DNA of 64,000 nucleotides from an uncultured Candidatus Saccharibacteria bacterium (lineage in GTDB: Bacteria > Patescibacteriota > Minisyncoccia > Phycocordibacterales > UBA12088). A model generated the notes under the pieces. That model had not been told where the DNA came from. It did no database searches and was given only the letters and a program-made list of their open reading frames with translations. A program made the translations under genes and the position numbers. The stretch spans positions 11,192 through 75,191 of the forward strand of contig CAYPBQ010000002.1 in assembly GCA_964409035.1 (NCBI GenBank), written 5' to 3'. Positions 1,642-52,086 of this stretch are shown here, piece after piece; the stretch's first letter is position 1, and the number at the start of each line of letters is the position of its first letter.

Positions 1642-1968
1642 TTAGATTAAGTTAACTATTAATATAGTGGTATACAAAAAACCTACCACTAGGTGGCCCG
1701 AAGGCCCATACCGGTTTCCCGATATGACGTCGTAAACGAGCCTAATGATAGGTTTTCTGTTTACGACGATTTGATGCCATGCCAGTGATTACTCACTGGT
1801 TTAGGCATGCTTTGCTATTTAGTTGTTAATGAACATTATATTCCATTTTTCCCTCTAATCCAACCCTATCGCATATCACTTGTTTTGCTAAGACCTAATG
1901 CGACCATGAGACGAAAAACTAGTTCTGCATAGCTATGCAGGGTTCTTGGTTTTGTCATTAATATATGT

Positions 1969-3631: not shown

Positions 3632-3652
3632 ATTGTTTTGAATTTTCTTTGA

Positions 3653-4810
3653 TTATTGTAACAAACCCTTTAGTTTATTTTTTACAATCACAAAAGGATC
3701 TTTTTCAGAATCAAGTAACGAGTCTCCTCTTTTAAAATCGCTAGTTAATGGATTAATAGGTGTACCATTTTCAAACATAGCGTATTGGAGATGAGGACCT
3801 GTTGAGATGCCTGTTGAGCCAACATACCCTATAATATCTCCCTGATTGACACTCACTCCATTTTTAACACCCTTGGCTATGCTTGAGAGATGAGCATACT
3901 GCGTAAGATAACCTCCATGTTTTAATTCTACAGTAATACCCAAACCTCCTTTTGAACCAGCAGTTGTAACTTTACCATCAGCAGTAGCGATCACAGGAGT
4001 TCCTGTATTTGCAGCATAATCAATCGCCCTGTGTGCAGTAACTTGTTTAGTTACTGGATTCACGCGACTGTAGCTGTAACCTGAACTGATTTGAGCATAA
4101 CTAAGGGGTGATTTAAGAAATTGACGAGCCAGAGATTCTCCATTTTCATTATAAAATTTATCGTTATAACGAAATGCCGTATATGTTTTGCCGTCGTTCG
4201 TAAACTTTGCTCCTAAGACTTTTCCAGCCCCAGCTGGTTTTCCATCAAGTGTTCGCCTTTCATAGACTAGAGAAAATGAATCGCCCTCTCGTATATCAGT
4301 AGCAAAATCAATATCGCTTGAAAAGATACTAGCGAGTTCCATAGTGGCCTTATCTTCAACTCCTGTGTTTTGAGCTGTGAGAAACAATGAGTCTGCAATA
4401 ATTCCTTTTGCAGTAACTACTTTGATATCATATTCAATAGGTTTAGCGACCACTTCAAAAGCATTCTCTTTTTTTTCAACTACAACAACCTCATCGCTTG
4501 AAAGTGGATATTCGATTGAAGCAAGTGCTTTCTTCACGAAGATTAATTTAAGAACCTTTCCGGTTTGAATTTTTGTAAAATCAAACACATCTTTTGAAGA
4601 ACTAAGAATAGTCAGGGCTTGGTCGTATGATACGTCAAAAGACCCTAAAACCTTCGTAAACGTATCACCTGACTGTATTTCATACTCTACAACCTCTCTA
4701 TTTGCTATTTGTTGTGTAGAAATGTCTTGATTTATGTCATTTTTTGATCCAACGAAGGGGGCGGCTACAAGGATAATGCCTCCGATGACCAAGGAAATTA
4801 TTTTCTCCAT
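3653..4810 (-). CDS. M23 family metallopeptidase (LytM-like) with an N-terminal signal/TM
   Basis: C-terminal HRAIDYA...GSTGISTGPHLQYAM signature of M23 peptidases. Confidence 0.75.
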   Translation of the reverse strand: MEKIISLVIGGIILVAAPFVGSKNDINQDISTQQIANREVVEYEIQSGDTFTKVLGSFDVSYDQALTILSSSKDVFDFTKIQTGKVLKLIFVKKALASIEYPLSSDEVVVVEKKENAFEVVAKPIEYDIKVVTAKGIIADSLFLTAQNTGVEDKATMELASIFSSDIDFATDIREGDSFSLVYERRTLDGKPAGAGKVLGAKFTNDGKTYTAFRYNDKFYNENGESLARQFLKSPLSYAQISSGYSYSRVNPVTKQVTAHRAIDYAANTGTPVIATADGKVTTAGSKGGLGITVELKHGGYLTQYAHLSSIAKGVKNGVSVNQGDIIGYVGSTGISTGPHLQYAMFENGTPINPLTSDFKRGDSLLDSEKDPFVIVKNKLKGLLQ

Positions 4811-5026
4811 GAACCACTCATCTTAGCAGAAATAGGTCACTTTTTCAACCCAAAAACGAGCCTTATTTTAGGGGCTATAATGATAAATAATTTAATCACC
4901 AAGAAAAAACAAAGGAGCTGTAAAAGCCCTTTTTGCCGTTTTTTTGCCCTTATCGCGAGCTTTGCACAAGGATTAACCTTTTAGCCTCTTGCCTAGTTGG
5001 ACGAGCCGTTAGACGATTCTTTTAGA

Positions 5027-5353
5027 TTAGCCAAAAATTAAAACTTTATCTGAACTCTCCACCATTTTGAGTAAGTCGGGCATCGTGAAAACTGGACATA
5101 CACTACTTTCTTCCTTCCCACGAACTTTAAGACAACTACCACAAGCATAAATCTCGCCTTTTAATTCTTTGAACTCCGACATTTTCTTTGAAATATCAAA
5201 ATCTTTAGTATCGGGAATGGTATATAATTCTGACCCCTCGCTCATTAAAAAGATTTCTACTTGATGTCCAGCTTTAAGCGAAGTAATTCCAAGACGAAAT
5301 GTATTCCATATATGCTCTGGTTTATTTGATTGTAAAATCATTCCTAGTTTCAT
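5027..5353 (-). CDS. DsrE/DsrF-like family protein
   Basis: About 108 aa with a DsrE-like fold signature and a conserved Cys (YACGSC). Confidence 0.45.
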   Translation of the reverse strand: MKLGMILQSNKPEHIWNTFRLGITSLKAGHQVEIFLMSEGSELYTIPDTKDFDISKKMSEFKELKGEIYACGSCLKVRGKEESSVCPVFTMPDLLKMVESSDKVLIFG

Positions 5354-5359
5354 AATAGT

Positions 5360-5602
5360 TTAACTTAAATCTTTCTTCTTTTCTTCAAACTCTTTCTTAT
5401 CAATTTCGCCCTTGGCATATCTTTCTTTCAAAATATCTAATGCGTTTTTACTACCATCCACTCCATTGGTTTTACTATTACGAACAAGCCAGACAATGAA
5501 ATAAATGATTGCTCCCCAAAATAAAAGCATCATAATTCCACCTCCAAACCAGCCCATCATATTGCCCCAACCTCCAAAACCATTATATATTCCATACATC
5601 AT
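5360..5602 (-). CDS. SHOCT-domain small membrane protein
   Basis: Gly/Met-rich TM segment followed by a C-terminal [27 protein letters not shown] motif. Confidence 0.55.
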
Positions 5603-5731
5603 AGTTTTTATAGTTAATACTAATAATTTTTATTCTTACAACATTTTACCATAAAATAAATCTTCCATTGGAATACCTAACGCTTTGATGAGTTCAATTT
5701 TTTTGGCTGCAAAGATGATTGTTTTTTCATA

Positions 5732-6130
5732 CTAATTAAAATTTACTGCGAAATTATACATTCCCATCGAGCATACGCCCTGAACTTTCTCACCGGATTT
5801 TGGATTACCTAAGTCAATTATTTCCTCTCCTGTAGGCTGTAAGACTTTTTGGAATCCAGCTGAACGAATGGCGAGCGATGCAGAGCAATCGTAGGTGCCG
5901 TCGGTTTTTACCACTAACTTAGTTGGCATTCCTCCCTTAAGTTGGGTAGTGCGCGGAGAATAACCGCCCTTTGCCGTTATAGTCACATACTGCACACCGT
6001 CTCTAATCTCAACATTCTGAGATTGCGTAACTTCACCACCCGAGGATGCCGATCTGTCAGAGACAAAGTAAAGAGTCCCACCGATAAGGACGACACTGAC
6101 GATAATGGATATGATTGTGTTTTTTTGCAT
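5732..6130 (-). CDS. Cupredoxin-like domain protein (membrane-anchored, putative copper-binding)
   Basis: TM anchor. Cupredoxin_1-like C-terminus with Cys..Met ligand pattern (GVCSMGMYNF). Adjacent to copA. Confidence 0.5.
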   Translation of the reverse strand: MQKNTIISIIVSVVLIGGTLYFVSDRSASSGGEVTQSQNVEIRDGVQYVTITAKGGYSPRTTQLKGGMPTKLVVKTDGTYDCSASLAIRSAGFQKVLQPTGEEIIDLGNPKSGEKVQGVCSMGMYNFAVNFN

Positions 6131-9754: not shown

Positions 9755-10249
9755 CTAGGGGGTATTGTCAAAACAGAATGTGGATAGTTTTTTATTCTGG
9801 AAACGAGAAATAATGTACGAGCTCACGAGGATGGATACGATGGCAATTACCACACTACCCAGAACATCTATCGGATGATGCACTTTTGCAAGAACGCTTC
9901 CAATACCCACTATCATAGCTAAAGTACCTAAGAGAATTCCCATCTTCTTATGAAGTATAAAGATAATTCCTGCGATCAGTATTGCAAAAAGCGTATGCTC
10001 CGATGGAAAACCATTGTCTGCCACATGAGGAACAAGAGGAGAGATATTCTCAACCACAAAAGGTCTTGGACTGTAGACAATTGCGTTTAATGCCTTATCG
10101 ATCACTAATGCTACAATCGAGGACAATAATGCAAGTATGAGTATAGGTTTTCTATCCGCATATAACTTACTAACCAAAAAGACGATAGCAATCACTGCTA
10201 TCACTATGTAGAGATACTGAACGGAGAAAAAAACCAATTGATTGAACAT
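9755..10249 (-). CDS. PAP2 superfamily phosphatase (membrane)
   Basis: PAP2 motifs: KALN..SPRP, GFPSEHT, HHPIDV. Confidence 0.7.
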   Translation of the reverse strand: MFNQLVFFSVQYLYIVIAVIAIVFLVSKLYADRKPILILALLSSIVALVIDKALNAIVYSPRPFVVENISPLVPHVADNGFPSEHTLFAILIAGIIFILHKKMGILLGTLAMIVGIGSVLAKVHHPIDVLGSVVIAIVSILVSSYIISRFQNKKLSTFCFDNTP

Positions 10250-10254
10250 CTGGC

Positions 10255-10440
10255 TTACTTATCCTTCCAGGATTTTTTCAAGTCCTTCCAGAATCTCTTG
10301 TGAATTTCTATGGTGTCAGCAAGGTGCTTTTCGGCCAGATGCTTCACGTCACCACCAGCTTCTTCTATTATTTCTTGATGGATTCTAATTTCTTCTTGAG
10401 CGTGATCCTTTAATGCTTGTATCGCTTTTTTTAGATTCAT
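10255..10440 (-). CDS. Small hypothetical protein (61 aa, charged, helical)
   Basis: ORF only. Sits inside the operon-like array. Confidence 0.3.
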   Translation of the reverse strand: MNLKKAIQALKDHAQEEIRIHQEIIEEAGGDVKHLAEKHLADTIEIHKRFWKDLKKSWKDK

Positions 10441-10506
10441 ATAATTTTTATTAATTTGTAATGATTGTGGTCGGCTGTTTTCTAGGATTTAAGATCATGT
10501 AATAAC

Positions 10507-11130
10507 TTATTTATACCAGTTGGTATACCAATCCTGCATCTGCTGTATTTCCTCTGACTGTGATTTGATAATATTCTTTGCAAGTTGTTGCATCTCTGGT
10601 CTACCAGTACCGGATTCAAGCATTCGCGCCATCATAATGGCCATCTGATGATGAGGAATCATCTGCTCAATAAATTCCTTGTCAAAATCAGATGCGTTTT
10701 TTAGAACTTCAATGTCTTGAGTACTGCCCATATGCATACCGCCCTGCGACATCATTCCACCCATCCCTAGGTTCGCACCGCTTGGAACGCTTTTCCCAAA
10801 CCAATCCTGATACCATGCGCGCATTTCCTGATTTTCTGCAGTCTGAGCTTTGAGGATCGCCTGAGCCAATGTTTTAATCTCCGGACGAGTTGCTTTCTCC
10901 AAAGCCAGATTTGCCATGGCGATTGCTCCGTCATGGTGCGGGATCATTTGCTCGATGAAATGCTGATCAATAGAACTCGCAATTCCTTTACGTGCACTCG
11001 GATTTTGGCCATAGTTCCAAGACATCATTCCTCCATACCTCATAATGGGAGTAAAAAGTGTGGCAAGAATGAGCCCGATCACAATTCCTCCTATCCCGTA
11101 TATTATTTTGTTGTTTTGATTGTTGTTCAT
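10507..11130 (-). CDS. DUF305 domain protein (tandem repeat), copper-resistance associated
   Basis: Two copies of the FIEQMIPHH(D/Q)xAIxMA motif. Confidence 0.75.
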   Translation of the reverse strand: MNNNQNNKIIYGIGGIVIGLILATLFTPIMRYGGMMSWNYGQNPSARKGIASSIDQHFIEQMIPHHDGAIAMANLALEKATRPEIKTLAQAILKAQTAENQEMRAWYQDWFGKSVPSGANLGMGGMMSQGGMHMGSTQDIEVLKNASDFDKEFIEQMIPHHQMAIMMARMLESGTGRPEMQQLAKNIIKSQSEEIQQMQDWYTNWYK

Positions 11131-11140
11131 AGTGTTTTAG

Positions 11141-11341
11141 TTAATTATTTGAATTTGTAATTAATGTGCTTGTTGCTGATGGTTCTTGTACTGTTTTCCT
11201 AGAGCCGTTCCTATTGTCCCGAGTGATATATGCATAACTAAAAAGTAGAACAGCGAAAATTATTGTTATTGCGAGTTTCTTTGGTTCTATCTTTTCAGAA
11301 TGGTTGTGCATAATATCTTTAATCTTTAAGTGCCTCATCAA
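11141..11341 (-). CDS. Small membrane protein, hypothetical
   Basis: ORF with one TM segment. Confidence 0.25.
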   Translation of the reverse strand: MMRHLKIKDIMHNHSEKIEPKKLAITIIFAVLLFSYAYITRDNRNGSRKTVQEPSATSTLITNSNN

Positions 11342-11972
11342 TCAGTTTCTTGAAGGGTTCATATCCTTGTGGATTTTCAATTTTTTTACCGTTAAGGAAA
11401 AATGATGGAGTTCCTTGGAGATTGAGACTTACAGCTTCTTTATAACTATCGTCCACACGCTTTTTCACCTCATCACTAGTGACATCTTTTTTCCATTGCT
11501 CGATATTTACACCAGCTTCAATTGCATACTTTTCAAACTGATTTTGGTTTGTGAATTGACCTTCACCCCACTCCTTTTGTTTATTGAAAAGCACATCATG
11601 CATTTCCCAAAACTTTCCTTGTTTTCCTGCCGCTTCAACTGCATAAGCCGCCGTTTTAGAATTTTTGTGTCCTGGTAAAGGAAAATAACGAACCACAAAA
11701 AGAATAGATTCTTTGTACTCATCCTTTATCTGTCTAATCAAAGGATAGTACGCTCCACATGCTTCACATTCAAAATCAAGGTATTCAACAAGAACAACCT
11801 TTGCTGTAGTACTTCCGATAGCCCAATCATTTCCTTTGATTTCCAGTGTAGAAGCCTGAGTAGTATTAGTATTTTCAATTTTATCTTCTGATTTTTTGTA
11901 ACTTCCTTTTGCCATAAAGAATACTATGACAATAAGAACAACAATACCGATAATAACTTTAAGATGTTTCAT
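11319..11972 (-). CDS. DsbA-like thiol:disulfide oxidoreductase (thioredoxin fold, membrane-anchored)
   Basis: CEAC active site in a DsbA-like context. N-terminal TM. Confidence 0.75.
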   Translation of the reverse strand: MKHLKVIIGIVVLIVIVFFMAKGSYKKSEDKIENTNTTQASTLEIKGNDWAIGSTTAKVVLVEYLDFECEACGAYYPLIRQIKDEYKESILFVVRYFPLPGHKNSKTAAYAVEAAGKQGKFWEMHDVLFNKQKEWGEGQFTNQNQFEKYAIEAGVNIEQWKKDVTSDEVKKRVDDSYKEAVSLNLQGTPSFFLNGKKIENPQGYEPFKKLIDEALKD

Positions 11973-12429
11973 ATTTATCTTTATTTAGACTAATAAATGC
12001 AAGAACTGTAATAACTGCGAATGAGACGAGTCCCATAAACGGAATGGTTATAAAACCAAACCATTCAAAAAACTTGGTTGTGCATGATATTCCAAGTGTA
12101 CATGGAGCAATACTTTCAGGAAGTACTTTCCAATAAAGTAGATTGTGATAGATAGAAATTATAAAACCAGGAATTGCTAGAGCAAGAACGGAAATATAAA
12201 GTTTTCTATCGCCTCGCATAATACCAATAGCAGTAAGAATAACTATCGGATACATTGCAATACGCTGATACCAACAGAGAACGCACGGAGGTAAATTCAT
12301 TACCTCACTGAAAAACAGACTTCCTGCCATAGCTATACCTGCTTGTAGCAATATGCCATAATGAAGTGTTTCAACATAAATTTTGTTAATAATTTTTTGC
12401 ATAGTTTTAATTTTAGATTTTACAAACAA
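11959..12429 (-). CDS. Disulfide bond formation protein B (DsbB/BdbC family)
   Basis: CVLCWYQR motif in TM1 and a second Cys pair (CTLGISC). Confidence 0.75.
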   Translation of the reverse strand: MFVKSKIKTMQKIINKIYVETLHYGILLQAGIAMAGSLFFSEVMNLPPCVLCWYQRIAMYPIVILTAIGIMRGDRKLYISVLALAIPGFIISIYHNLLYWKVLPESIAPCTLGISCTTKFFEWFGFITIPFMGLVSFAVITVLAFISLNKDKYETS

Positions 12430-12952
12430 GAGGGTCTACTATTTTTTTAGCAGTTAGATAGATTGCAACTACAAGAAGTAAGACCCCTATAATTCCAAAT
12501 TCACTACCTCCAAGTGGAAGAAGTGCCAAAACACTTCCAGTACCGAAAAAAGTTAAACTAGTCAGAAGAAATGATCCACAAGCAGCACATCCGACTCCCA
12601 AGAGTCCGCTTAGAGCACCTAGAAATCCAGTAGCCACCCCACTTTGCCCAACTTCTTTGATTCTACGTTTCAGAAAGTATGTCATCATCGAAATGTACAC
12701 TCCAAATAAAATAGAAATCAAGATAGTGTAAGAAGCAGAAAACAAAGTGAAGTTAGTAGTGATAGAACCCAAGAGACTAAATGGTAATTCAATTTTAGTT
12801 GCAAGAGGTACATCTCCCGAAGTGACCAAACTTACGATTAAGTTAATGTTTGGCAGCCATACCGCAAACGCAAAAGCTACAATGCCTACAACTATTGTAA
12901 GAACTACATATACCACTTTTTGATATACCTCTTGTAAGGCTCGAATTAACAT
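12413..12952 (-). CDS. Polytopic membrane protein with a vicinal Cys motif (GVGCAACG), function unknown
   Basis: Four or more TM helices. CAAC lies in a helix. Sandwiched between dsbB and dsbA. Confidence 0.45.
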   Translation of the reverse strand: MLIRALQEVYQKVVYVVLTIVVGIVAFAFAVWLPNINLIVSLVTSGDVPLATKIELPFSLLGSITTNFTLFSASYTILISILFGVYISMMTYFLKRRIKEVGQSGVATGFLGALSGLLGVGCAACGSFLLTSLTFFGTGSVLALLPLGGSEFGIIGVLLLVVAIYLTAKKIVDPLVCKI

Positions 12953-12961
12953 ATTTTTCTG

Positions 12962-13696
12962 CTATTTATTTTGAAGTGCGAGATCAATTAGTTGCTTAAC
13001 AGATGCCAGAGGTTGAGAGCCTGAAAGTGGATATTTCTTTCCTTTTGGACCGACAACAATACTCCATGGGGTGCCTTGTCCACCAGTTGCTACTGCATTT
13101 TGAACATGCTCTTCAATTTTTTGTGCATACTTTCCACTTGTAAGACATTCGTTGAATTTATTTTTATCTAGACCAACATATTCCGCAATTTTTGGAAGCT
13201 CTGCTGGATCAAGACCATTGTTTGCAGGAGTAATTTCCATAAGACGATCTAGGTATGCCCAGAATTTATCGTTACCACCGAGTTCAGCGGCACATTCAGT
13301 TGCCTCAGCCTCTTTACGAGCTTTTGAGTGAAGTTGATCAAGTGGAAAGTGCCGATAGACCCACGCAACCTTGCCGTTCTTTCCATATTCATCCATGACC
13401 TGTTGCATAGTTGGATGGAATCTTTTACAGAAAGGACACTCTGTATCCGAGTATTCAACTATTTTTACTGGTGCATTTATATCGCCCCTAATATGATCTT
13501 CTGATGTCACAGGAATCATTTTATCCAAGTCACCAGTTTCTTGTACTATTGCTTGTCCTTGAGTATTTACTGCATTACTACTAGGGGTTTTACCGCTACT
13601 ATATGCTACAGCCCAAGCAATAAGGGCTCCTGCAATAACAATAGCAATTGGTATCGCTAGATTATTTTTTTGAATTATTTGTGTGGGTTCTTCCAT
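12962..13696 (-). CDS. DsbA-like thiol:disulfide oxidoreductase (second copy)
   Basis: CPFC active site in a thioredoxin-fold context. N-terminal TM. Confidence 0.75.
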   Translation of the reverse strand: MEEPTQIIQKNNLAIPIAIVIAGALIAWAVAYSSGKTPSSNAVNTQGQAIVQETGDLDKMIPVTSEDHIRGDINAPVKIVEYSDTECPFCKRFHPTMQQVMDEYGKNGKVAWVYRHFPLDQLHSKARKEAEATECAAELGGNDKFWAYLDRLMEITPANNGLDPAELPKIAEYVGLDKNKFNECLTSGKYAQKIEEHVQNAVATGGQGTPWSIVVGPKGKKYPLSGSQPLASVKQLIDLALQNK

Positions 13697-13761
13697 AGAG
13701 ACATAAAATTAAATTAATAAAACCACCATCAAAAAATTGAGGGTGTATTTAATTAATGCCA

Positions 13762-14178
13762 CTAGAAAAGTTTGGGGTTCAGAATACCTTGAGAAAAAGC
13801 TTCTTGAAGATAGTCAGATACTGAAATATTCCTTGAGTAAAAACGGTTTATCCCCAGTTCTAGTCGTGAAAAATTCTCTAGAGAAAGTTTATTAAAATAT
13901 TTTAATCCAAGTAAAGCCAGTAGGGTTAGAAGTATGGAAAGAATTATCGACAAGATGTCTTTTGAAGGAAGTGTAGTAAACATACTTTGCCACTCTTCTA
14001 GATGCTCCAGTGGGTTCATGCTACATATAGACATTGAATGACCAGAGAATGGACATCTTGTCATTGTCCCGCCTATATCCATACCAACCTGTGATATGCC
14101 GAAAACTGCAACTAAGATAAAGATAGTGGCTATAAACGAAAAAATATTTTTGACTACCGTGCTTTTGAGAATAAACAT
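13762..14178 (-). CDS. Membrane protein with a Cys cluster (CPFSGH..C..C), hypothetical
   Basis: TM helices plus the Cys-rich loop. No recognisable family. Confidence 0.35.
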   Translation of the reverse strand: MFILKSTVVKNIFSFIATIFILVAVFGISQVGMDIGGTMTRCPFSGHSMSICSMNPLEHLEEWQSMFTTLPSKDILSIILSILLTLLALLGLKYFNKLSLENFSRLELGINRFYSRNISVSDYLQEAFSQGILNPKLF

Positions 14179-41986: not shown

Positions 41987-42045
41987 CCCAGTCACTACTT
42001 CACTTCGTTCAACAGAAGCCCGTCCGCTACGCGGACGGCTCCCCT

Positions 42046-44346
42046 TTAATTTTGAGTTACAGTATTAGAAAACTGTTCTTCAAGTATTTGATAATGTTCA
42101 GGAAACACAGTTTTCATCATCTCAAGTAAATACTGAATATTTTTTTGTGCCTCGGGGACTAATGAAGGATCAAAACCGTCACCAGTGATATGTGATTGGT
42201 GATTAGTAAACTTATAGATCGCGGTTTTCTTATTCTCGTCAAAAACAAGTTTTTCCATTTTCTTGTATGGATTTTCACCATTAGGTACTCTAAACATTAA
42301 GAATGTATCGAGAACTTTTCTGGCAATATTCGGTATGTGGTAAACGGAAGCAATACTCCCGTCAGTTTCAAATGTATACAAAACCTTAAACAAATAGTGG
42401 TACTCACTCTCGTGATCTTTCAGCTCTTTATCGAGTTCTGAAATAAATGCTGTTCTTCCGTTGGTCGCAGAATACTGATTTTTTATCATATAAAATCGAC
42501 TGTTTTTCTGTACACTTCTGTGATTGATCCAACCAAGAACCAATTTCAAGAAACTAAAATTATGCGTGAGTATGAATACTTGCTTTGCATCTTTCACTGC
42601 ATTTCTAAGAAACGCGAATGCTTGAAACAAAGAGTTCGAATCAAGACTTGAGATGGGATCATCTACAACAACTATACCATTTGCTATGTCAAAATTTTGA
42701 TCCTTCAAATGCACGACAAAATACACGAATGCAATAGCTGTTTTTTCTCCCTCACTCAGATTTTTCGCTATGACTTTGTTTCTTTTTACAACATACCCGC
42801 CCTCAGGGGACACCTCAAAAATGATTTCAGCTCTTCCTAAAAATGTTTGTATTTGCTCATTAAGAGTACCGCACGCCTTATGTTCGGAAGATATTTTCCC
42901 TTTGTTTTCAGTTATCTGTTTCTTTAATTTGGTTATACCCAAAAGAGCATCAGTGCCATCGCCATTCTCAAGCTTTAAAATTTCCTTACCATATTCCTCA
43001 ATCTCTTTATCAAGATTTTTTACTTCGTCAAAAATCTCACTCAAATGATGATTTTTTAATAGTTCAACAGCTTTATCTTTTTCTGTTTGGAAATTATCGC
43101 TTTTCTGATTATGTTGCTTGATCGTCTCATTGACAGAATCAAGAGAAGTTTGAAAATTATTGCTCAACGATCTAGAGAAAGGTACGTTCTCGGTGGTTTT
43201 TTGTTTTTTAGTATTCAAAATCTCAACCATTGACGATAGTTCAGAGCAATAATTTTCTCTTTCTTGATTGTAGGTTATAGCTTGTGATGTGAATTGTGTT
43301 TGTAAATCAGTATAAAATTGAGCCTTATTTGGAAGTTGGGCATTTCCAACTTTTTGAATACTCTGTTGTAGATTAGTAACTTTTATTTCTATCTTTTCCT
43401 TTAGTTTCTTGTCAGCTTCGTTAAAATGACCCAACAATGTATCAATTCTTCCATTCGGAAGAATTGAACCGCAAAACTCACATTGTTTACTTTCGGTTGT
43501 GTGTAAAATCAAACCTTTTTCTACCCACTCAGAAATATTCTGATTTTCAGTAAGATGACTGATAACATTTATCTCTACTGTTTCTTTGCATATATTTGAA
43601 ACTTCTTCATAGAGAACAGATAAACCAAGACCTACCTCAAATTCAATTTCTGGTATCTTATCTTTCTGCTCTTGTTTGATGACCGCCTGTTGCTTTGTAA
43701 CCTCATCTGCACTTAAAATTTTCTTTTCTGTTATAGTTGCAAAATCCTTTTCAGCGTCAGGTTTTCTATAATTTCTAGTGGATGATCCAACAAGATTCGC
43801 ACCAATTATTTTTGCTACTTCAGTAAATTTATTACCGTTGTCGTTTTCTTTTTTTATTTTTTCAGCTTCTATGGAACTCTTTTGGGTTTCAAGATTGTTC
43901 AAGGTATTTTCATCAACCTTAATCTGATCAGCAATTTCTTTATTCTCTTCCCCAAGAATAAAAATAGGATTTGCCTTTCCGCTAATTAACTGCACATTCT
44001 TCTGAATGTAATCTTGATTGAATACGCGAATCTTTTTGTTCAGTTGGGTATTTTCTTTGCAATTACCATTTTCGTGTTCAATATCGTACTCAAGATAAGA
44101 AAATTCGGGCGTATTACCAACTTCTAAACATGCAAATAGCTTTGAGAGTGTTGTTTTTCCAGAACCATTCCAGCCGTAAAAAAGATTGTATTTACCAAGG
44201 TCATCCAAATTATTATCCCATGTGTAATCAGAGAATAATCCAAGATTTTTAATTTTCTTTAGCTTCTTTAGCATATCTTTTGAAAAACAAACAAATGTTC
44301 GTGCATTATCAGCAAGAAATTTGATTCTTTTGATTTTGTAACCCAA
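42046..44346 (-). CDS. AAA_13-type ABC ATPase with a coiled-coil zinc hook (RloC/PrrC-like candidate anticodon nuclease)
   Basis: GWNGSGKTT Walker A, long coiled coil containing CEFCG (CxxC), LSEGEKTAIAF signature, IVVVDDPISSLD Walker B, ILTHN H-loop, and about 170 aa of unassigned C-terminal domain. Co-directional with the RM genes and overlapping the last of them. Confidence 0.55.
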   Translation of the reverse strand: MGYKIKRIKFLADNARTFVCFSKDMLKKLKKIKNLGLFSDYTWDNNLDDLGKYNLFYGWNGSGKTTLSKLFACLEVGNTPEFSYLEYDIEHENGNCKENTQLNKKIRVFNQDYIQKNVQLISGKANPIFILGEENKEIADQIKVDENTLNNLETQKSSIEAEKIKKENDNGNKFTEVAKIIGANLVGSSTRNYRKPDAEKDFATITEKKILSADEVTKQQAVIKQEQKDKIPEIEFEVGLGLSVLYEEVSNICKETVEINVISHLTENQNISEWVEKGLILHTTESKQCEFCGSILPNGRIDTLLGHFNEADKKLKEKIEIKVTNLQQSIQKVGNAQLPNKAQFYTDLQTQFTSQAITYNQERENYCSELSSMVEILNTKKQKTTENVPFSRSLSNNFQTSLDSVNETIKQHNQKSDNFQTEKDKAVELLKNHHLSEIFDEVKNLDKEIEEYGKEILKLENGDGTDALLGITKLKKQITENKGKISSEHKACGTLNEQIQTFLGRAEIIFEVSPEGGYVVKRNKVIAKNLSEGEKTAIAFVYFVVHLKDQNFDIANGIVVVDDPISSLDSNSLFQAFAFLRNAVKDAKQVFILTHNFSFLKLVLGWINHRSVQKNSRFYMIKNQYSATNGRTAFISELDKELKDHESEYHYLFKVLYTFETDGSIASVYHIPNIARKVLDTFLMFRVPNGENPYKKMEKLVFDENKKTAIYKFTNHQSHITGDGFDPSLVPEAQKNIQYLLEMMKTVFPEHYQILEEQFSNTVTQN

Positions 44347-45056
44347 AAACCAGTTGCCTTACAATTAAACTGCCTTTTTATTATGTCTTCTTTTAAGACA
44401 AAACCTGAGTCTAAAAATTTCTGCATTACCTTAAATGCAAGTGGTTGATACATTTTGTTTCTGCGTGTATCTCCCATTAAAATCGCACAAAACTTACCAG
44501 GTTTTAATACTCGGTATAATTCCTTTGCCACCTTCTCTATTTCATTAACGAATTCATCAATGTCGTGTATTCCAGACAAATCTTCTTCAATTTTTCCTTC
44601 ACTATATTTTATTATGTCTGCATAAGGAGGATGAGTTAAAACAAAATCAATCTCATTATCTTTAATAAAGCTCATGTTTCGAGCATCGCATTTTACTACT
44701 CTTTGTTTTGCCTTATTATCAACCTCAAACTCAAGAGATTTTTTAGTTCTCTCTAGTGCTTCTTCATTAACATCAACACAAGTAATGTGGCGATTTAAAA
44801 TCTTTGCTTCTATCGCCGTAGTTCCTCCACCAATCATACAATCGAGCAAATGATCTTTTTCTTTTGAGTAACGCAAAATAAGATTTCGCGCTACTTCTGG
44901 CGACCAATTTCCACGCCAATCAGATTTATGTGTAGCCCAATTACCACGACGAGGAAAAGCCCACACCGTTGTGCATTCTAGTTCAAATTCATCAGGGTGT
45001 AGTTTATTATCTGACATATATTTACCATACGAGTTTATCCAAAATTCCAGCTTCAA
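44268..45056 (-). CDS. DNA N4/N6 methyltransferase (second methylase of the RM cassette, DpnA/M.MboC-like)
   Basis: Motif I DCMIGGGTT, motif IV LTHPPY (a (D/S)PPY variant). Confidence 0.7.
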   Translation of the reverse strand: MKLEFWINSYGKYMSDNKLHPDEFELECTTVWAFPRRGNWATHKSDWRGNWSPEVARNLILRYSKEKDHLLDCMIGGGTTAIEAKILNRHITCVDVNEEALERTKKSLEFEVDNKAKQRVVKCDARNMSFIKDNEIDFVLTHPPYADIIKYSEGKIEEDLSGIHDIDEFVNEIEKVAKELYRVLKPGKFCAILMGDTRRNKMYQPLAFKVMQKFLDSGFVLKEDIIKRQFNCKATGFWVTKSKESNFLLIMHEHLFVFQKIC

Positions 45057-45879
45057 GCATATTTAAATTAAAAACATAGTCATTGTGATTATATGTTTCC
45101 TCAAGAGGTCTTTTTGTTGTAAACCAACCAAGTCCATCAGTGATCCAAATGAAATCTATATTTTGATCTTTGAGTTCTGTGTGCAAACTCTTAAACTCTC
45201 CGCACACTGCCTTGAGTTTTGAACCACCACCATTATAGAAATTCACCTCAAACAATTTAACCTTTTTATTTTTAGGGTTGAAAACAGCAAAATCAAAACT
45301 GCGTTCTGATTTATCAACTTTTACATCTACACCCCATTTGCTTTTTATTGCGGTTGATCGTGCTTGTGATAAGTATTCGAAACCATTTTTATTACAAAGC
45401 TCACTAACAAATGATTCTGCGATTTCTTCCATCAAAGATCCTCCGCGATTCTTGCGACCATTACTATCAAGACCGACTTCAACACCCATAACATAATCTA
45501 CTAAATTTTTTATTCCATCTTTTTGAAATAGGCGGGCAAGTCCAGATTTTTCTAAAAATTCATAGTACTTTTCTGAATCTTTTTCTGTACCAGAAAAATC
45601 AAAGAATTCAGAACTTTTAGTAACTTTATCAAAAATCTCTAGCTTATTTTCTCTAACTGCTAAAAGTACTGGTAGCGCCTTAACAATATCTGGATTTGAG
45701 CTATAAAGTTTTTTGAATTCATCTTTTAAATTCTCCTTACCCAAGAGATAGTTTAGTTTGTTTAGAGTAATTTCGAGTTCGGAAGAATTTGCAAAAACCT
45801 TTTTCCAATTCACAAAGTAATCCCATGTTTTAATTGAGCTTTTGAATGTTGTTATTAAATTATTAAAATCTTTTTGCAT
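45022..45879 (-). CDS. Type II restriction endonuclease, DpnII/MboI family (GATC) candidate
   Basis: About 285 aa located between two methylase genes as in the MboI/DpnII cassettes. Size and composition match R.DpnII. No independent motif proof. Confidence 0.55.
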   Translation of the reverse strand: MQKDFNNLITTFKSSIKTWDYFVNWKKVFANSSELEITLNKLNYLLGKENLKDEFKKLYSSNPDIVKALPVLLAVRENKLEIFDKVTKSSEFFDFSGTEKDSEKYYEFLEKSGLARLFQKDGIKNLVDYVMGVEVGLDSNGRKNRGGSLMEEIAESFVSELCNKNGFEYLSQARSTAIKSKWGVDVKVDKSERSFDFAVFNPKNKKVKLFEVNFYNGGGSKLKAVCGEFKSLHTELKDQNIDFIWITDGLGWFTTKRPLEETYNHNDYVFNLNMLEAGILDKLVW

Positions 45880-45883
45880 ATAT

Positions 45884-46843
45884 TTAGTAATTAGTTACTA
45901 GTACCTCTGTAATTTTTCCTCTTTTGGAAGCATCAGAGTTAATGGCGCGACCCGCCTGTACTTTTGTAATACGGAGACCTTTTGGTTCCGAGTAAATTTT
46001 ATTTATTAATGGTGTATTAGAATTTGAAAGCATAACAAAACAACCACGTTTGTGTAATTCTACAAATGTATCTCTTAGTTCGATTTGTTCTTTATCTAAA
46101 AATGATTCACTGGTGTAAGAAGTAAACGAGGCAGTTTTACTTACTGGATAATACGGTGGATCAAAGTAAACAAAATCTCCTTTCCTTGCCTTTTTTAACA
46201 CCTCTTTATAATCCTGTTTTTTTATCTCAACATTTTTCAATGCTTTTGATGCTTTTCTAAGATTATTTTCATCGCAAATAAGAGGATTTGTGTATTTACC
46301 AAACGGAACATTAAACCAGCCTTTGCTATTCACACGATACATTCCATTAAAACAAGTTCTATTCAGATAGATAAAACGAGAAGCAATATTCAAATCGGAA
46401 AGTTTTTCTGGGTCTTGAGCGCGAACTTTTAGAAAGTATTCTTTGTCTAACTTATGTTTTTTTAGTGATTTTATTAGATTTTCAACATCATTTTTAATCA
46501 CATTATAAGTAGCGACAAGTTCGTTATTTAAATCAGAAAGATATGCTGTTTCAGGAAGTAAATCAAAGAATACTGCACCACCACCAACAAACGGCTCAAA
46601 GTAAGTATTCGTAATAGGGTCGAAATTTTCTGGCGGATATAATCCAAGATCACGGAATTGTTTGAGTAATTGTCTTTTCCCACCAACCCATTTTACAAAC
46701 GGCTTTGGTTTCTCTTCGAGCAACTTCGCAATATCCTCAAACATATGTTCCTTGCTTGCTGCATGAAAAAGACGACGCGCGTAAATAGCATTTATTGAAA
46801 AAGTGTCTGCAATTTTTGTAATAATTTGGTTTTGAGTAGTCAT
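45884..46843 (-). CDS. Dam-family (D12 class) N6-adenine DNA methyltransferase
   Basis: KWVGGKRQLL (Dam motif), FVGGGAVFF (motif I) and DPPY (motif IV). Confidence 0.85.
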   Translation of the reverse strand: MTTQNQIITKIADTFSINAIYARRLFHAASKEHMFEDIAKLLEEKPKPFVKWVGGKRQLLKQFRDLGLYPPENFDPITNTYFEPFVGGGAVFFDLLPETAYLSDLNNELVATYNVIKNDVENLIKSLKKHKLDKEYFLKVRAQDPEKLSDLNIASRFIYLNRTCFNGMYRVNSKGWFNVPFGKYTNPLICDENNLRKASKALKNVEIKKQDYKEVLKKARKGDFVYFDPPYYPVSKTASFTSYTSESFLDKEQIELRDTFVELHKRGCFVMLSNSNTPLINKIYSEPKGLRITKVQAGRAINSDASKRGKITEVLVTNY

Positions 46844-46845
46844 AA

Positions 46846-47073
46846 TTATTTCAAAAGTTGATCTACGTTCATTCCAAGCACTTTGGCAACCTTTTCCATT
46901 GTGCTAATGGTAAGATTTTGTTTGCCATTCTCAACATTACTAATATACGCTCGATCTAACCCTAACTCTCGGCAAATGTCGCCTTGCGACATGCCTTTTT
47001 CGAGCCGTATCTTTTTCATGTTATCGCCAAATTTTTGTGCTGTTGTTTTTGCCATAGTGTTATCGTTGTGCAT
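46846..47073 (-). CDS. XRE-family HTH regulator, probable RM controller (C) protein
   Basis: 75 aa. HTH_3 (QGDICRELGLDRAYISNVENG). First gene of the RM operon. Confidence 0.7.
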   Translation of the reverse strand: MHNDNTMAKTTAQKFGDNMKKIRLEKGMSQGDICRELGLDRAYISNVENGKQNLTISTMEKVAKVLGMNVDQLLK

Positions 47074-47827
47074 GTTTAAGTATCCATTTAGTATGTTCGT
47101 TCTTTGACCTTGACCAATCTGCGATCAATTTCTTTGCTTCTTTTGGGTTTACTTTCACCCAGTCACGCACATGATTGGCTACTGATTTTTTGACAAACTT
47201 TATCTCGTCCTCTTTAAGCAATTCGAGAATTTCAAAAATTGGTTTAGGATTCTCGTTCCAAACATCGAGTTTTGTTGCCCACGGAAGCTTTGGACGAAGT
47301 CCCTCACTTGCAAGTCGGCGAAGGTGAAAATTTTTACTCTTTGCCCACTTGGCGCATACTGCGAGCGTCTTAGCGGGGTACTTGCGGGCATATGGACGAA
47401 TTGCATATTCCCCCGTATTTCTTTTGGTAATTTCTTCGATTGCTTTCATTGATAGTGCAAAGTGTTCGAGTCCGTATTTCTCTACAAATTTACCAACCGG
47501 CATGAGCCAGTAGAAATTTGTAAACATGCCTGTTTCTTCTTGGTTTTCGGGTCCGAGTATTTGCAAAAGAATATCGAGTGCTTCCGGGTATTTATCTGGG
47601 AGATATTGCTTGAGTAAACTTGCAAGGATTTCTATCCTTTGCGTGTAACTCTTGCCGACAACTTGTTTCTTAGTATCTCGTACAAAATTCTTGCTATCAA
47701 ACTTTTGATAAACAGTCGATATCTTTTTCGCAAGCAATGCAGCCAAATTTTCACCGAACGCTTCGGTGATTGATATTTTGCCAGTTTTTGGATTTACGAA
47801 ATTATTTTGTGCTGTGGATTTCGCCAT
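47060..47827 (-). CDS. DNA alkylation repair protein (AlkD/AlkC-like HEAT-repeat glycosylase family)
   Basis: All-helical, about 255 aa, with a repeat pattern and W/R-rich DNA-binding helices like the DNA_alkylation family. Confidence 0.5.
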   Translation of the reverse strand: MAKSTAQNNFVNPKTGKISITEAFGENLAALLAKKISTVYQKFDSKNFVRDTKKQVVGKSYTQRIEILASLLKQYLPDKYPEALDILLQILGPENQEETGMFTNFYWLMPVGKFVEKYGLEHFALSMKAIEEITKRNTGEYAIRPYARKYPAKTLAVCAKWAKSKNFHLRRLASEGLRPKLPWATKLDVWNENPKPIFEILELLKEDEIKFVKKSVANHVRDWVKVNPKEAKKLIADWSRSKNEHTKWILKHAQR

Positions 47828-48141
47828 GCTGTTTGGAAACTCATCAACATTGCTAATTATAGCATTCTATTGTGTTTTAACTTAATGGTAAGCCATGATA
47901 CAAGTTCGCAAAACAGCATCGTATGAAGTGGCGGAACAAACCCTAAAAAATTTCCTTTCCATTTTTTGGCTAGCACACCACACACCCACCGAAGAGGAAA
48001 TTTTTGGTTTTTTGAGCCGAGCATGCGAGATGCACGTGTCATTCGGCAAAATCATCCGGATTTTGACTCAAATACACTTGAACTTTGTTCAATACACATC
48101 ACAAAACTAGGAAATAGCGCGAAGCATTTGGTGACTATGTT

Positions 48142-48231
48142 TGGCGGAGAGTGAGGGATTCGAACCCTCGAGGGGTTTTACCCCCTACCTCGTTAGCAGT
48201 GAGGCGCTTTCGGCCACTCAGCCAACTCTCC
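48142..48231 (-). tRNA. tRNA-Ser (anticodon GCU), long variable arm, CCA encoded
   Basis: Acceptor GGAGAGT/ACTCTCC, anticodon loop CTGCTAA, variable arm GGGGG/CCCCC, T-loop TTCGAAT. Confidence 0.8.
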
Positions 48232-49234: not shown

Positions 49235-49250
49235 TGGGATAGTGAGGTAT

Positions 49251-49286
49251 AGCAAACGCCGCCGCCCATGGGCGGCGGCGTTTGCT
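49251..49286. terminator. Strong GC-rich hairpin terminator
   Basis: agcaaacgccgccgcc-catg-ggcggcggcgtttgct: perfect 16-bp stem. Confidence 0.6.
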
Positions 49287-51453
49287 ATACTTCACCCATC
49301 TAATGCTACACCATCCGCTACAACACCATCTGCGACTCGACACCGCTCATATAAAAGCTCTCGAAAGGCTCGGTATAAAAACGGTGCACGACCTACTCAC
49401 CTTTTTGCCTACTCGGTATGAAGATATTTCACTTATTAAAAAAGTAGTATCACTGAGAAAAGGTGATGAAGCGGTGGTCTATGGCAAAGTGACAGGACTA
49501 ACAACTAAAAAATCTTTTAAACGAGGACTTCCGATATCTGAAGGAGTTATTGATGATGGCTCTGCAAAGATGAAGATACGCTGGTTCCACCAACCATATA
49601 TTGCAAAAATGATTCCTGAAGGATCGTTAGTAAAACTTAGCGGAGTAGTAAGCGGCGATGAAGACAAGCTATACCTTGCTAACCCAGAGATAGAACGCAC
49701 TGATGATCTTCCTATAGACTCACATGATTCACTTTTTGATAATGCAGATGGAACGCTATACGCCGTGTATCGAGAAACAAAAGGTGTCACGTCAAAATGG
49801 TTTCGACACGCGATAAAAAAACTTCTCACCAATGAATTACTGCAATCACTTGTAGACCCTATCCCAGAGGATATACTCGCACGCTACCATCTTCCATCTT
49901 TTGCCACCGCTCTCGTCTGGGCGCACATGCCAAAAACTGAGAAAGACACCATCTCGGCACGGAAGCGTTTTTCATTTGAAGAAATTTTGTCCATACAACT
50001 TGCGCGGGCAAAAGATAGACACGACCTATCATTAACTCCCTCCTTTGGAATACAAACCACACCGCAAGATGTCGATCTATTTATGCGAGAACGGTTCAGC
50101 TTTGCGCCAACCAATGCGCAAACACATGCAGTGAAGACTATACTCAGCGATCTTTCGGGCGCACACCCCATGGCAAGGCTATTAGAGGGAGATGTTGGGA
50201 GCGGCAAAACCGCTGTTGCTGCAGCAACCATGTACGCAGTTGTTGCAACTGCCCCAAAGGATAACCGTTACAGCACACTCCAGTGTGCATACATGGCCCC
50301 CACCGAGCTTCTTGCTCGACAACAGTTTGATGCTCTCACACAGCTATTTAATCATTTACCTATTTCTATCGGACTTATCACCTCTCATGATTGTAGAAAA
50401 TTTCCATCTAAGGTAGATGGTGCGAGCGCCACAAAGGTTTCAAAAAATCAGCTAATGATGTGGGTAAAGAAGGGTGATGTTGCAATAGTGGTGGGGACAC
50501 ATGCGCTACTTCAAAAGAGTGTAGAGTTTAAAAATTTAGCGTATGTCATTATTGATGAGCAGCATCGCTTTGGTACCGCACAGCGACAAAAGCTCATTCG
50601 CAAAGACCACGTCGCTCCTCATCTTCTTTCAATGAGCGCGACCCCTATCCCCCGTACACTCGCGCTTACCATGTACGGCGACCTTGATATTAGCGTGCTC
50701 GATGAAATGCCAAAAGGAAGAAAGCCCGTAATTACAGAAGTGGTTGCGCCAAAAGATAGAAACGAAGTGTACCAAAAAATTATTGCCGAGCTTTCGCGTG
50801 GTAAACAGGCATATGTAATATGCCCACGCATAGATGAACCTGATCCCACCAAGGAATCAGTGCTTCTTGCAAAATCAGTGATAGCAGAAGCACAACACCT
50901 ACAAAAGACAGTGTTCAAAAACTATACTGTCGCATGGGTACACAGCAAACTAACACCTAAAGAAAAGGAAGATGTTATGGAACGATTTGCCGCGCACAAG
51001 GTAGATGTGTTGGTTGCAACTAGCGTGGTTGAGGTGGGGGTAAATGTACCAAACGCTACGAGTATTATTATTGAAGGCGCAGAACGTTATGGTCTTGCCC
51101 AACTTCATCAATTACGAGGAAGAGTAATCAGATCAAGCGAGCAAGCGTATTGTTACCTCTTTTCTGAATCATCAAGTAAAAAATCCAAAGAAAGATTGCG
51201 GGCACTCTCTGAAGCTAAAAATGGTTTCGCTCTCGCTGAGGCAGACCTCGCCCTACGCGGAGCAGGAGAGCTTATTGGTATCAAACAATCAGGCCTCACC
51301 GACAGGGGCATGGATGCCCTCAAAAACCTAAAAATGGTTGAGGCGGCACGAGATGAAGCTCGAAGACTTGTAGAAGAAGACCCCACATTAAAAAGTATTC
51401 CTCTTTTAAAAGAAAGGAGCGACGAGCTCATTCGCAGGCTCCATTTTGAGTAG
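49282..51453 (+). CDS. recG: ATP-dependent DNA helicase RecG (true start probably a few codons inside the ORF)
   Basis: Wedge/OB N-terminus. GDVGSGKTAVA Walker A, DEQH box (VIIDEQHRFG), helicase C motifs. Confidence 0.9.
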   Translation: MLYFTHLMLHHPLQHHLRLDTAHIKALERLGIKTVHDLLTFLPTRYEDISLIKKVVSLRKGDEAVVYGKVTGLTTKKSFKRGLPISEGVIDDGSAKMKIRWFHQPYIAKMIPEGSLVKLSGVVSGDEDKLYLANPEIERTDDLPIDSHDSLFDNADGTLYAVYRETKGVTSKWFRHAIKKLLTNELLQSLVDPIPEDILARYHLPSFATALVWAHMPKTEKDTISARKRFSFEEILSIQLARAKDRHDLSLTPSFGIQTTPQDVDLFMRERFSFAPTNAQTHAVKTILSDLSGAHPMARLLEGDVGSGKTAVAAATMYAVVATAPKDNRYSTLQCAYMAPTELLARQQFDALTQLFNHLPISIGLITSHDCRKFPSKVDGASATKVSKNQLMMWVKKGDVAIVVGTHALLQKSVEFKNLAYVIIDEQHRFGTAQRQKLIRKDHVAPHLLSMSATPIPRTLALTMYGDLDISVLDEMPKGRKPVITEVVAPKDRNEVYQKIIAELSRGKQAYVICPRIDEPDPTKESVLLAKSVIAEAQHLQKTVFKNYTVAWVHSKLTPKEKEDVMERFAAHKVDVLVATSVVEVGVNVPNATSIIIEGAERYGLAQLHQLRGRVIRSSEQAYCYLFSESSSKKSKERLRALSEAKNGFALAEADLALRGAGELIGIKQSGLTDRGMDALKNLKMVEAARDEARRLVEEDPTLKSIPLLKERSDELIRRLHFE

Positions 51454-51518: not shown

Positions 51519-52067
51519 ATGAGCAAGCTGTTCTCTTTTCTTTTATCCGCAGTGATTCTGTGTGGGGTGTTTGGATTGGAGTGGAAAAAAGCTAAGATAG
51601 ATGGAATTGCCTATGCAGTATATTCTCAAAGCGATTCCTTGCGTAAAAATTTTGAAGAAATTGTTTTATGCGCAGAGGATATCAGATCAGGAAAAACTGA
51701 CTGCCAGAAAAGTTTTCAACAAATATTTGCTGGTAGAGACGCGGCTATTAGAGATTCTTGGCCGGGTACATTTGACATCCTAGAGACCAGCCCACACTGG
51801 GCATGGGTACGAAGAGGTGACTACGACAGATTCAATGCGGCAATAGCTGCATATGGGCGCGACAGATTAAGAAACAAATGTATCCCCATCATAACGTATA
51901 TGTATACGGAAGGGAGAACAACCTTCAATTTTGATCACCGTTACCGCTGTAACGATGATCCTCCTAGGCCACCTTCGGGTGGCCTTTCTTTTATATTAAC
52001 TACAACTAGCTGTGCGCCCGCTTGGACTCGAACCAAGGACCCCAAAGGTATAAGCTTTGTGCTCTAA
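51519..52067 (+). CDS. Hypothetical secreted protein (3' end doubtful)
   Basis: Signal-peptide-like N-terminus. The ORF tail reads through a hairpin terminator (51967-51986) and into the tRNA. Confidence 0.35.
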   Translation: MSKLFSFLLSAVILCGVFGLEWKKAKIDGIAYAVYSQSDSLRKNFEEIVLCAEDIRSGKTDCQKSFQQIFAGRDAAIRDSWPGTFDILETSPHWAWVRRGDYDRFNAAIAAYGRDRLRNKCIPIITYMYTEGRTTFNFDHRYRCNDDPPRPPSGGLSFILTTTSCAPAWTRTKDPKGISFVL

Positions 52068-52086
52068 CCAACTGAGCTACGGGCGC
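52013..52086 (-). tRNA. tRNA-Ile (anticodon UAU)
   Basis: Acceptor GCGCCCG/CGGGCGC, perfect anticodon stem CAAAG/CTTTG, loop CTTATAC, T-loop TTCGAGT. Confidence 0.65.

Follow-up and report, generated by a model that had tools for sequence, protein, structure and literature searches.

Here, we describe a gene of the RloC family that forms the last gene of a type II restriction-modification (RM) operon in an uncultured Candidatus Saccharibacteria bacterium. The gene lies on the minus strand of a 64,000-nucleotide stretch of contig CAYPBQ010000002.1, which is referred to as the window and whose own positions are used throughout. Its predicted product combines an ATP-binding cassette (ABC) head, split by a long coiled coil with a Rad50-like zinc hook, with a C-terminal domain predicted to be of the HEPN type. 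We consider it likely that the protein is an RloC-family ABC ATPase and anticodon nuclease, encoded by the last gene of an acquired GATC RM operon and triggered by DNA ends. Family membership, the conservation of motifs and fold, the structure of the operon and a recurrent linkage to type II RM genes are documented here. RloC is included in defence catalogues, and the published view is that it is rarely linked to RM genes and works alone. In this clade, operons of only five genes join rloC, by an overlap, to the end of a type II system that cuts frequently, and they provide a natural test case for the question whether restriction-generated DNA ends can activate an abortive-infection nuclease. 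The gene would also add a defence module to the repertoire of small-genome Patescibacteria-type bacteria.

The RloC-family protein and its C-terminal domain

The Pfam AAA_13 profile is covered from position 4 to 711 of 713 (E 6.3e-132), and the PADLOC profile PDC-S06, a defence candidate, matches with E 6.2e-251. The PADLOC model for PrrC also aligns, to residues 506-749 (E 1.4e-9). Homologs at 51-92% identity are labelled "wobble nucleotide-excising tRNase", that is RloC, by JGI and "AAA family ATPase" by NCBI. RloC proteins have been defined by PrrC-like ABC motifs, a coiled-coil/CxxC insert, a length of 658-897 residues and a C-proximal Arg-x3-Glu-x36-52-His motif in which a Ser often precedes the His (Davidov & Kaufmann 2008, PMC2610378). 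With 742 residues the product lies inside this size range. The profile matches and motifs mark the gene as a clear member of an already catalogued family and not as a new effector, and the type II RM context does not change the kind of system. An annotation as RloC-family anticodon nuclease would be preferable to "AAA family ATPase". Residue numbers below refer to the 766-residue open reading frame (ORF) counted from a TTG codon unless the 742-residue numbering is indicated, the offset being 24. The gene and the features of its product are as follows.

42046..44274, minus strand: rloC-like gene, 742 residues from the ATG at 44274, stop codon at 42046-42048
44149..44175, minus strand: Walker A / P-loop GWNGSGKTT, residues 58-66 (K64, T65), from the translation
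42838..43950, minus strand: long, mostly alpha-helical coiled-coil insert splitting the ABC head, about residues 109-479 in 742-residue numbering, from the AlphaFold2 model
43471..43482, minus strand: zinc hook CEFC(G), residues 289-293 (C289, C292), within H-x6-CEFCGSILP-x9-HFNEAD
42742..42759, minus strand: ABC signature LSEGEK, residues 530-535, from the translation
42640..42672, minus strand: Walker B and D-loop VVVDDPISSLD, residues 559-569 (VVVDDP 559-564), from the translation
42559..42573, minus strand: H-loop with linchpin His, ILTHN, residues 592-596 (T594, H595), from the translation
42049..42429, minus strand: C-terminal, all-alpha, predicted anticodon-nuclease (HEPN-type) domain
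42307..42321, minus strand: R676-K-V-L-D680, the putative Arg and acidic residue of the catalytic triad, matching the published R-x3-E
42190..42213, minus strand: K712-F-T-N715-H-Q-S718-H719, the putative catalytic His block, 38 residues past D680 by motif spacing

Conservation was assessed in two sets, 39 homologs at 47-92% identity and 75 relatives at 25-48% from species-representative genomes. The comparison with EcoPrrC and with GkaRloC of Geobacillus kaustophilus was based on published motif definitions, residue numbers, mutational tables and optically recognised text of a supplementary zinc-hook alignment. All ABC motif residues cited here are invariant or nearly invariant among the 39 homologs; in LSEGEK the L, S and both E are invariant and the G nearly so. 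Of the 75 relatives, 73 have the Walker A Lys and the other two show an alignment gap at this position; K64/T65 are the counterparts of the essential K46/T47 of EcoPrrC (PMC3025547). The Asp-Asp of Walker B is found in 75/75 relatives, and the DD-x2-SS-x-D spacing is identical to that of the essential EcoPrrC residues D215/D216/S219/S220/D222 (PMC3025547). The H-loop His is likewise invariant in 75/75, T594/H595 corresponding to EcoPrrC T250/H251 (PMC3025547). Given the full-length AAA_13 match and the residue invariance in both sets, the motif matches are, as judged from the alignments, not due to chance.

The Cys pair of the zinc hook is invariant in 39/39 homologs and 75/75 relatives, and the surrounding region (HTTESKQCEFCGSILPNGRIDTLLGHFNEAD) is close to the published RloC alignment, for example CAFCGSDLP...HFNQE (PMC2610378 supplement). 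In the full-length AlphaFold2 model (pLDDT, the model's per-residue confidence score, 83.4) the ABC head is followed by helices that leave and re-enter it and by an all-helical C-terminal domain. The long helices span residues 109-160, 286-310, 322-358, 374-437 and 447-479 (742-residue numbering), and CEFC is placed in a non-helical stretch between helices. The insert of about 370 residues with its central CxxC agrees with the definition of RloC, and zinc binding is predicted. The closest structures to the whole model in the PDB are Rad50, Lamassu LmuB, SMC heads and a retron SMC-like ATPase.

The C-terminal domain carries R676-x3-D680-x38-S718-H719, which fits the published RloC motif with a conservative replacement of Glu by Asp. 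Arg676 is invariant in both sets (39/39 and 75/75). At the acidic position, Glu predominates among the 75 relatives (63 E, 12 D) and Asp among the 39 close-clade homologs (23 D, 16 E). Ser-His is found in 75/75 relatives; within the clade of 39, His719 and Asn715 are invariant and Ser718 occurs in 37. The spacing K712-x2-N715-x2-S718-H719 equals that of EcoPrrC R349-x2-N352-x2-S355-H356 (PMC3025547), with Arg in 44/75 and Lys in 28/75 relatives at position 712 and Lys in 37/39 of the clade. The basic-x(4-6)-His pattern of HEPN domains is present as K712-x6-H719, mapped by spacing to EcoPrrC R349...H356. On these motifs we identify the C-terminal domain with the nuclease domain typical of RloC and PrrC, its activity being predicted, and it needs no new explanation.

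These results bear on an earlier note, made from the letters of this DNA alone, which had proposed an RloC-type, Rad50-like ABC ATPase with a CxxC hook. This assignment is supported by AAA_13, PDC-S06, the motifs and the model, and Walker A, CEFCG, signature, Walker B and H-loop do occur in the order that the note gave, conserved in both sets of relatives. The idea that the C-terminal domain has no assignable motif and could be a different effector had to be given up, as the domain contains the published RloC/PrrC motif and is matched by the PrrC model. The catalytic Arg/Glu/His triad that the note suggested looking for is there, with Arg and His invariant and the acidic residue either D or E.

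The nearest known system is RloC itself, as studied in GkaRloC and in AbaRloC of Acinetobacter baylyi (COG4694; DefenseFinder 'RloC'; PADLOC PDC-S06). Shared features are the ABC head, the coiled-coil insert with central CxxC and the C-terminal nuclease motif R-x3-acidic-x38-SH. The proteins are nearly collinear, with K40, C265/C268, D538 and R652/D656/H695 of the window protein (742-residue numbering) facing K44, C291, D572 and R692/E696/H737 of GkaRloC. The genetic settings differ. The window gene closes a type II GATC RM operon and overlaps the gene before it, whereas the studied rloC genes are unlinked to RM or, for GkaRloC, located in a transposon beside an hsdR relic. The host also differs and, to judge by the names of the closest homologs, appears to be a small-genome Patescibacteria-type bacterium. 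With EcoPrrC the window protein shares ABC motifs of identical spacing, a homologous nuclease domain, the attachment of the gene to an RM operon and, with PrrC in general, a presumed role as second line of defence. However, PrrC proteins have only about 400 residues (341-416), lack the coiled-coil/zinc-hook insert and are invariably found with type Ic hsd genes (EcoPrrC in the EcoprrI locus). PrrC nicks tRNA, while RloC excises the wobble nucleotide, and an RM protein keeps PrrC silent until the phage Stp peptide activates it. Rad50/SbcC, Lamassu LmuB and the retron type I-A ATPase share the coiled-coil-split ABC head and the apical CxxC hook. Unlike the window protein, to which they are 9-17% identical, Rad50/SbcC and the SMC-like defence ATPases have no fused HEPN domain and work with separate nucleases (Mre11, SbcD, LmuA).

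Several other identities were considered and rejected. PrrC was set aside for the 742-residue length with an insert of about 370 residues, as opposed to a compact protein, and for neighbours that are of the type II DpnII kind and not type Ic hsd genes. A Rad50/SbcC repair ATPase was rejected because no Mre11/SbcD partner gene is present in the operon and a predicted HEPN domain is fused to the C-terminus. PADLOC matches to MADS, Lamassu and JetC were judged to reflect generic ABC/SMC similarity. For MADS (mad1-8), the weak matches of RloC to mad3 (E 5.5e-9) and of the second methylase, M2, to mad2 (E 1.9e-16) are far below those to PDC-S06 and MTase_II, and the operon contains no further mad genes.

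As estimated from similarity searches, the RloC family is large. The C-terminal 263 residues match 3281 representative clusters at E <= 0.001 and 554 at <= 1e-30; among the matches listed (150 of 3281) all are of RloC length or fragments, and none of PrrC length bridges the two families. On viral contigs only distant relatives with <=31% identity were found. Relatives with <=41% identity, annotated 'AAA family ATPase', occur in 217 plasmid records, 149 of them conjugative plasmids. In two plasmids (NZ_CP102668.1, L189, and NZ_CP010360.2, L190; L-codes denote loci of related genes compared with the window) the gene stands among ssb, ParB, DUF932 and RadC genes, an arrangement that resembles a plasmid leading region.

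The ORF in the window runs uninterrupted from 42046 to 44346 on the minus strand. The 766-residue protein of the earlier note, counted from the TTG at 44346, thus corresponds to a real ORF, but its start probably has to be moved to the ATG at 44274 (Met25 of the long ORF). We set the TTG aside on several grounds. The gene calls of two public contigs of identical sequence give the 742-residue product, almost all of the 120 best homologs have 732-777 residues, homologs of 734-744 residues begin with MIKK or MLKK at the same place, and the alignment to the best PADLOC profile, PDC-S06, starts at residue 25. Moreover, the equivalent ATG of related loci shares 4 nt with the stop codon of the methylase (ATGA). 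With the start at 44274, the rloC start and the M2 stop share 7 nt (ATGCTAA) and not 79 nt; in the window a TGA-to-TGC change lengthens M2 by one codon and produces this overlap.

The GATC operon and restriction linkage among relatives

Upstream of rloC, and in the same orientation, lies a cassette with predicted GATC specificity, as expected from the families of its members; the hairpin that follows rloC is listed with it.

44268..45017, minus strand: M2, N6_N4-class DNA methylase in DpnA/MboC-like position (Pfam N6_N4_Mtase E 3.6e-24; PADLOC MTase_II E 6.7e-93)
45022..45879, minus strand: DpnII-family (GATC) restriction endonuclease (Pfam DpnII E 1.8e-95, full length)
45884..46843, minus strand: M1, Dam-class (D12) N6-adenine methylase (Pfam MethyltransfD12 E 6.5e-63; NCBIfam TIGR00571 dam E 4.6e-87)
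46846..47055, minus strand: helix-turn-helix (HTH) controller-like protein of 69 residues at the cassette head (Pfam HTH_3, HTH_19 and HTH_31 on an identical public gene call)
47060..47827, minus strand: DNA_alkylation-repair-like HEAT protein, 4 nt upstream of the HTH gene (Pfam PF08713 E 2.3e-7)
42020..42038, minus strand: terminator-like GC-rich hairpin between convergent genes, 8 nt past the rloC stop (pattern scan, a consensus match only)

The content M1(Dam)-R-M2(N6_N4) is shared with DpnII/MboI-type GATC cassettes, and the order M1-R-M2 is typical of MboI-like systems. To our knowledge, the described DpnII/MboI-type cassettes do not include an RloC gene. The six minus-strand genes from the DNA_alkylation-like gene to rloC are spaced by 2-4 nt or overlap, and the hairpin has a stem of 8 bp with 7 GC pairs. 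Co-transcription of rloC with the second methylase gene, and coupling of their translation, are very likely. The GATC cassette reported in the earlier note is thus borne out by the Pfam and NCBIfam matches of all four genes, as are the co-orientation and overlap of rloC with its last gene, the overlap being 7 nt long instead of 79.

We analyzed the context of 29 loci of the clade, in which RloC is 38-95% identical to the window protein. In 16 of the 29, rloC adjoins or lies near type II RM or methylase genes, with at least six endonuclease families represented. In 13/29 the gene directly upstream, on the same strand, encodes a DNA methylase or belongs to a type II RM system, and in three loci (L088, L089, L101) such genes are found within a few kb. 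A DpnII cassette precedes rloC in the window, L083/84, L090, L091 and L109; in L109 RloC is much more diverged than its DpnII cassette, and L083 and L084 also have the HTH controller-like gene. Other upstream genes are Dam, a MutH-family ORF and M2 (L105), DpnI and M2 (L082), a D12 methylase, AlwI and N6_N4 (L086), TdeIII, D12 and N6_N4 (L093), HinfI/TdeIII-type M and R (L099), a TaqI_C-containing ORF (L097), a methylase fragment (L092) and an EcoRI-type methylase with GmrSD downstream (L095). Type I genes are found in two of the 29 loci (L094, HsdM-RloC-HsdS...HsdR, and L108). Linkage to type II systems is thus recurrent in this clade and has arisen with at least six endonuclease families; the DpnII-linked cases are not independent of each other. 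The earlier note had regarded missing catalytic residues and a spread of homologs independent of RM loci as counter-evidence; the residues are conserved, and the homologs are often linked to RM genes.

Outside the clade the picture is different. No DpnII-type genes were found near 80 more distant species-representative relatives, while type I components lie within 10 kb in 16 of these 80, with both M and R in 12 of the 16. Among 89 co-directional neighbours at <=300 nt the commonest are HsdS (11) and ResIII/HsdR (10 and 5), and an N6_N4 methylase occurs once. These relatives, with type I genes or alone, agree with the literature, in which rloC is 'rarely' RM-linked, namely in 8 of 73 cases, all of type I or III (PMC2610378, PMC3458546). 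One 'Type IIS restriction system' is, however, listed beside the Petrotoga mobilis RloC in Table S1 (PMC2610378). The suggestion that a type II linkage had not been described therefore needs qualification: it is unusual against the literature, yet not entirely unrecorded, and the recurrence of rloC as terminal gene of type II RM operons in this clade is the sole, modest novelty.

Some of the related loci deserve a separate remark. In L082 (5237-9220) a DpnI-family gene, specific for methylated GmATC, is followed by M2 (92% identical to the window M2) and RloC (92%); the Dam/DpnII part looks as if it had been swapped for DpnI while the M2-rloC pair was retained. The combination of DpnI and M2 would be self-destructive if M2 methylates duplex GATC. 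In L105 (5568-10232) the MutH-family ORF (PF02976) stands where DpnII would be expected, between Dam (74% to L083 M1) and M2 (82%), and RloC is only 47% identical to that of L083. The RloC genes of L096 (499-2724) and L100 (8001-10209) are broken by frameshifts or stops and could be pseudogenes or assembly errors. In L109 the identity of RloC is uneven, with 38% in the N-terminal part and 64% at the C-terminus, on a contig of 2x coverage.

Proposed activation of the predicted nuclease

The enzymatic activity, tRNA targets and trigger of the window RloC can be proposed from its characterised relatives. By analogy with the Geobacillus and Acinetobacter enzymes, a zinc-hook/ATPase switch would keep the nuclease off, and ATP hydrolysis in the presence of DNA ends would switch it on. 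The active nuclease would cut tRNA anticodon loops and excise the wobble nucleotide, which would halt translation in the infected cell. For GkaRloC it is known that the nuclease is activated by its own ATPase only with linear DNA and that zinc-hook mutants are constitutively active (PMC3458546). Given such a DNA-end-dependent switch, ends made by restriction would be the simplest account of an operon that joins RloC to a frequent cutter. The trigger may hence be linear DNA ends supplied by DpnII cleavage of unmethylated incoming DNA, and RloC would back up restriction by adding translational arrest to DNA cutting. A wider proposal is that type II RM operons of this clade, most of which is associated with Patescibacteria, have taken up RloC as a fixed, translationally coupled last gene, above all where the specificity is GATC; RloC would then be a type II counterpart of PrrC-EcoprrI. 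It might be controlled by endonuclease-made ends or by contact with the second methylase and provide a two-stage response of restriction and shut-down. We put this forward only tentatively and regard it as somewhat doubtful.

Several observations weigh against an ends-triggered anticodon nuclease that is coupled to the operon. In A. baylyi, inducers of double-strand breaks activate RloC also in RM mutants, in which activation was unaltered (PMC3874168), so that coupling to RM is not general to RloC. Three of the 29 clade loci lie beside other defence genes only (AbiV in L103 and L104, a STAND gene at the P0063 locus), and eight have no RM or defence neighbour, three of these being disrupted (L096, L100) or partial on their contig (L107). 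The active site departs from that of the studied enzymes, with D680 where EcoPrrC and GkaRloC have the catalytic Glu and K712 at the equivalent of Arg349 of EcoPrrC, and in EcoPrrC E324D and R349K each abolish toxicity in yeast assays (Table 1, PMC3025547). A Foldseek search of the C-terminal model against the PDB gave nothing significant. Sequence searches of the PDB, in which the full protein returned only a weak EcfA ABC match and the C-terminal profile none, found no PrrC/RloC nuclease structure. The prediction of a HEPN-type nuclease fold is for these reasons good but not airtight. The two substitutions and the missing Foldseek match would suit a C-terminal domain that is dead or repurposed, in a protein acting as SMC/Rad50-like DNA sensor or RM accessory without tRNase activity. 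We think this very improbable. Arg and Ser-His are invariant across 75 relatives, Asn715 is invariant in the clade, Lys is kept in 37/39 and an acidic residue in 39/39, a pattern expected of a working site and not of a decaying one. Because both D680 and K712 recur naturally under strong conservation, we interpret them as marking an active site that is variant but functional.

If the domain is a working nuclease, its relation to the RM genes can still be seen differently. RloC might be autonomous and merely travel with RM genes, clustering in defence islands or hitch-hiking on the promoter of a mobile cassette with no cross-talk. This would be in line with a low-GC island bordered by a tRNA-Ser gene, with the recombinases, rve integrases and Bro-N genes of related islands, with the diversity of neighbours (type II, type I, GmrSD, AbiV, STAND) and with the emphasis of the literature on rloC moving as single cargo (PMC3458546). 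However, in 13 loci, which among them contain at least six endonuclease families, rloC keeps one position, as the 3'-terminal gene immediately behind a co-oriented methylase or endonuclease gene, and the overlapping stop and start codons argue for selected co-expression. We therefore see an autonomous passenger as a possibility, though not one that we would favour. A further alternative is a guardian in the manner of PrrC, in which an RM protein, most plausibly M2, silences the nuclease until a phage anti-restriction factor disables the RM system. Besides the PrrC precedent with a type Ic system, the behaviour of M2 speaks for it. M2 overlaps the rloC start in L082 and L083 and is 92-96% identical to that of the window, the overlapping pair with rloC being kept although the rest of the cassette differs (DpnI for Dam/DpnII in L082). 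In L083 M2 (96%) is more conserved than M1 (80%), R (83%) and RloC (83%). Yet in L086, L095 and L085 the genes for RloC relatives at 76-81% identity come after an unrelated methylase or after none, and the studied RloCs have an internal switch that needs no RM partner, which makes silencing by M2 unlikely. An RloC that responds to the DNA ends made by its companion endonuclease remains the account that we prefer.

The island and other features of the window

The RM genes and rloC have a GC content of 0.32-0.34, compared with about 0.43 in the flanks. The low-GC island (~42.0-47.9 kb) is bordered by a tRNA-Ser(GCT) gene at 48142-48231. In L083, from a related 742-kb genome, the same cassette with rloC lies between recG and comF/pilM and adjoins a large serine recombinase. 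From the GC contrast, the tRNA-Ser border and the cassette at the same site by a recombinase in L083, we conclude that the block HTH-Dam-DpnII-M2-rloC is a horizontally acquired island with rloC as its last gene. The recG-to-comF/pilM interval of L087 holds rloC with Bro-N and an rve integrase, and the interval looks like a hot spot of integration. Bro-N genes are located a few genes from rloC in L082, L087 and L092, in two cases alongside rve-type integrases. No convincing att-type direct repeats were found flanking the island, and a promoter scan gave sites no more numerous than in shuffled sequence.

It is uncertain whether the DNA_alkylation-like gene belongs to the operon. It is missing from the otherwise identical L083 cassette, and its GC content of 0.40 is intermediate. 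A direct repeat of 29 nt with 83% identity (47033-47061 and 47805-47833) spans the first ~8 codons of the HTH gene (MAKTTAQK) and of the DNA_alkylation-like gene (MAKSTAQN), and may be the scar of an insertion of the latter at the cassette head.

Elsewhere in the window, a near-perfect palindrome of 27+27 nt with 96% complementarity and no spacer (49242-49295) overlaps the start of the recG ORF at 49282. ARAGORN predicts a tRNA-Ile with anticodon TAT at 52012-52086, and the 52-54 kb block has the highest GC content of the window (0.51). Further low-GC stretches at 1-6000 and 10000-14000 (0.35-0.38 against about 0.44) may represent other acquired islands.

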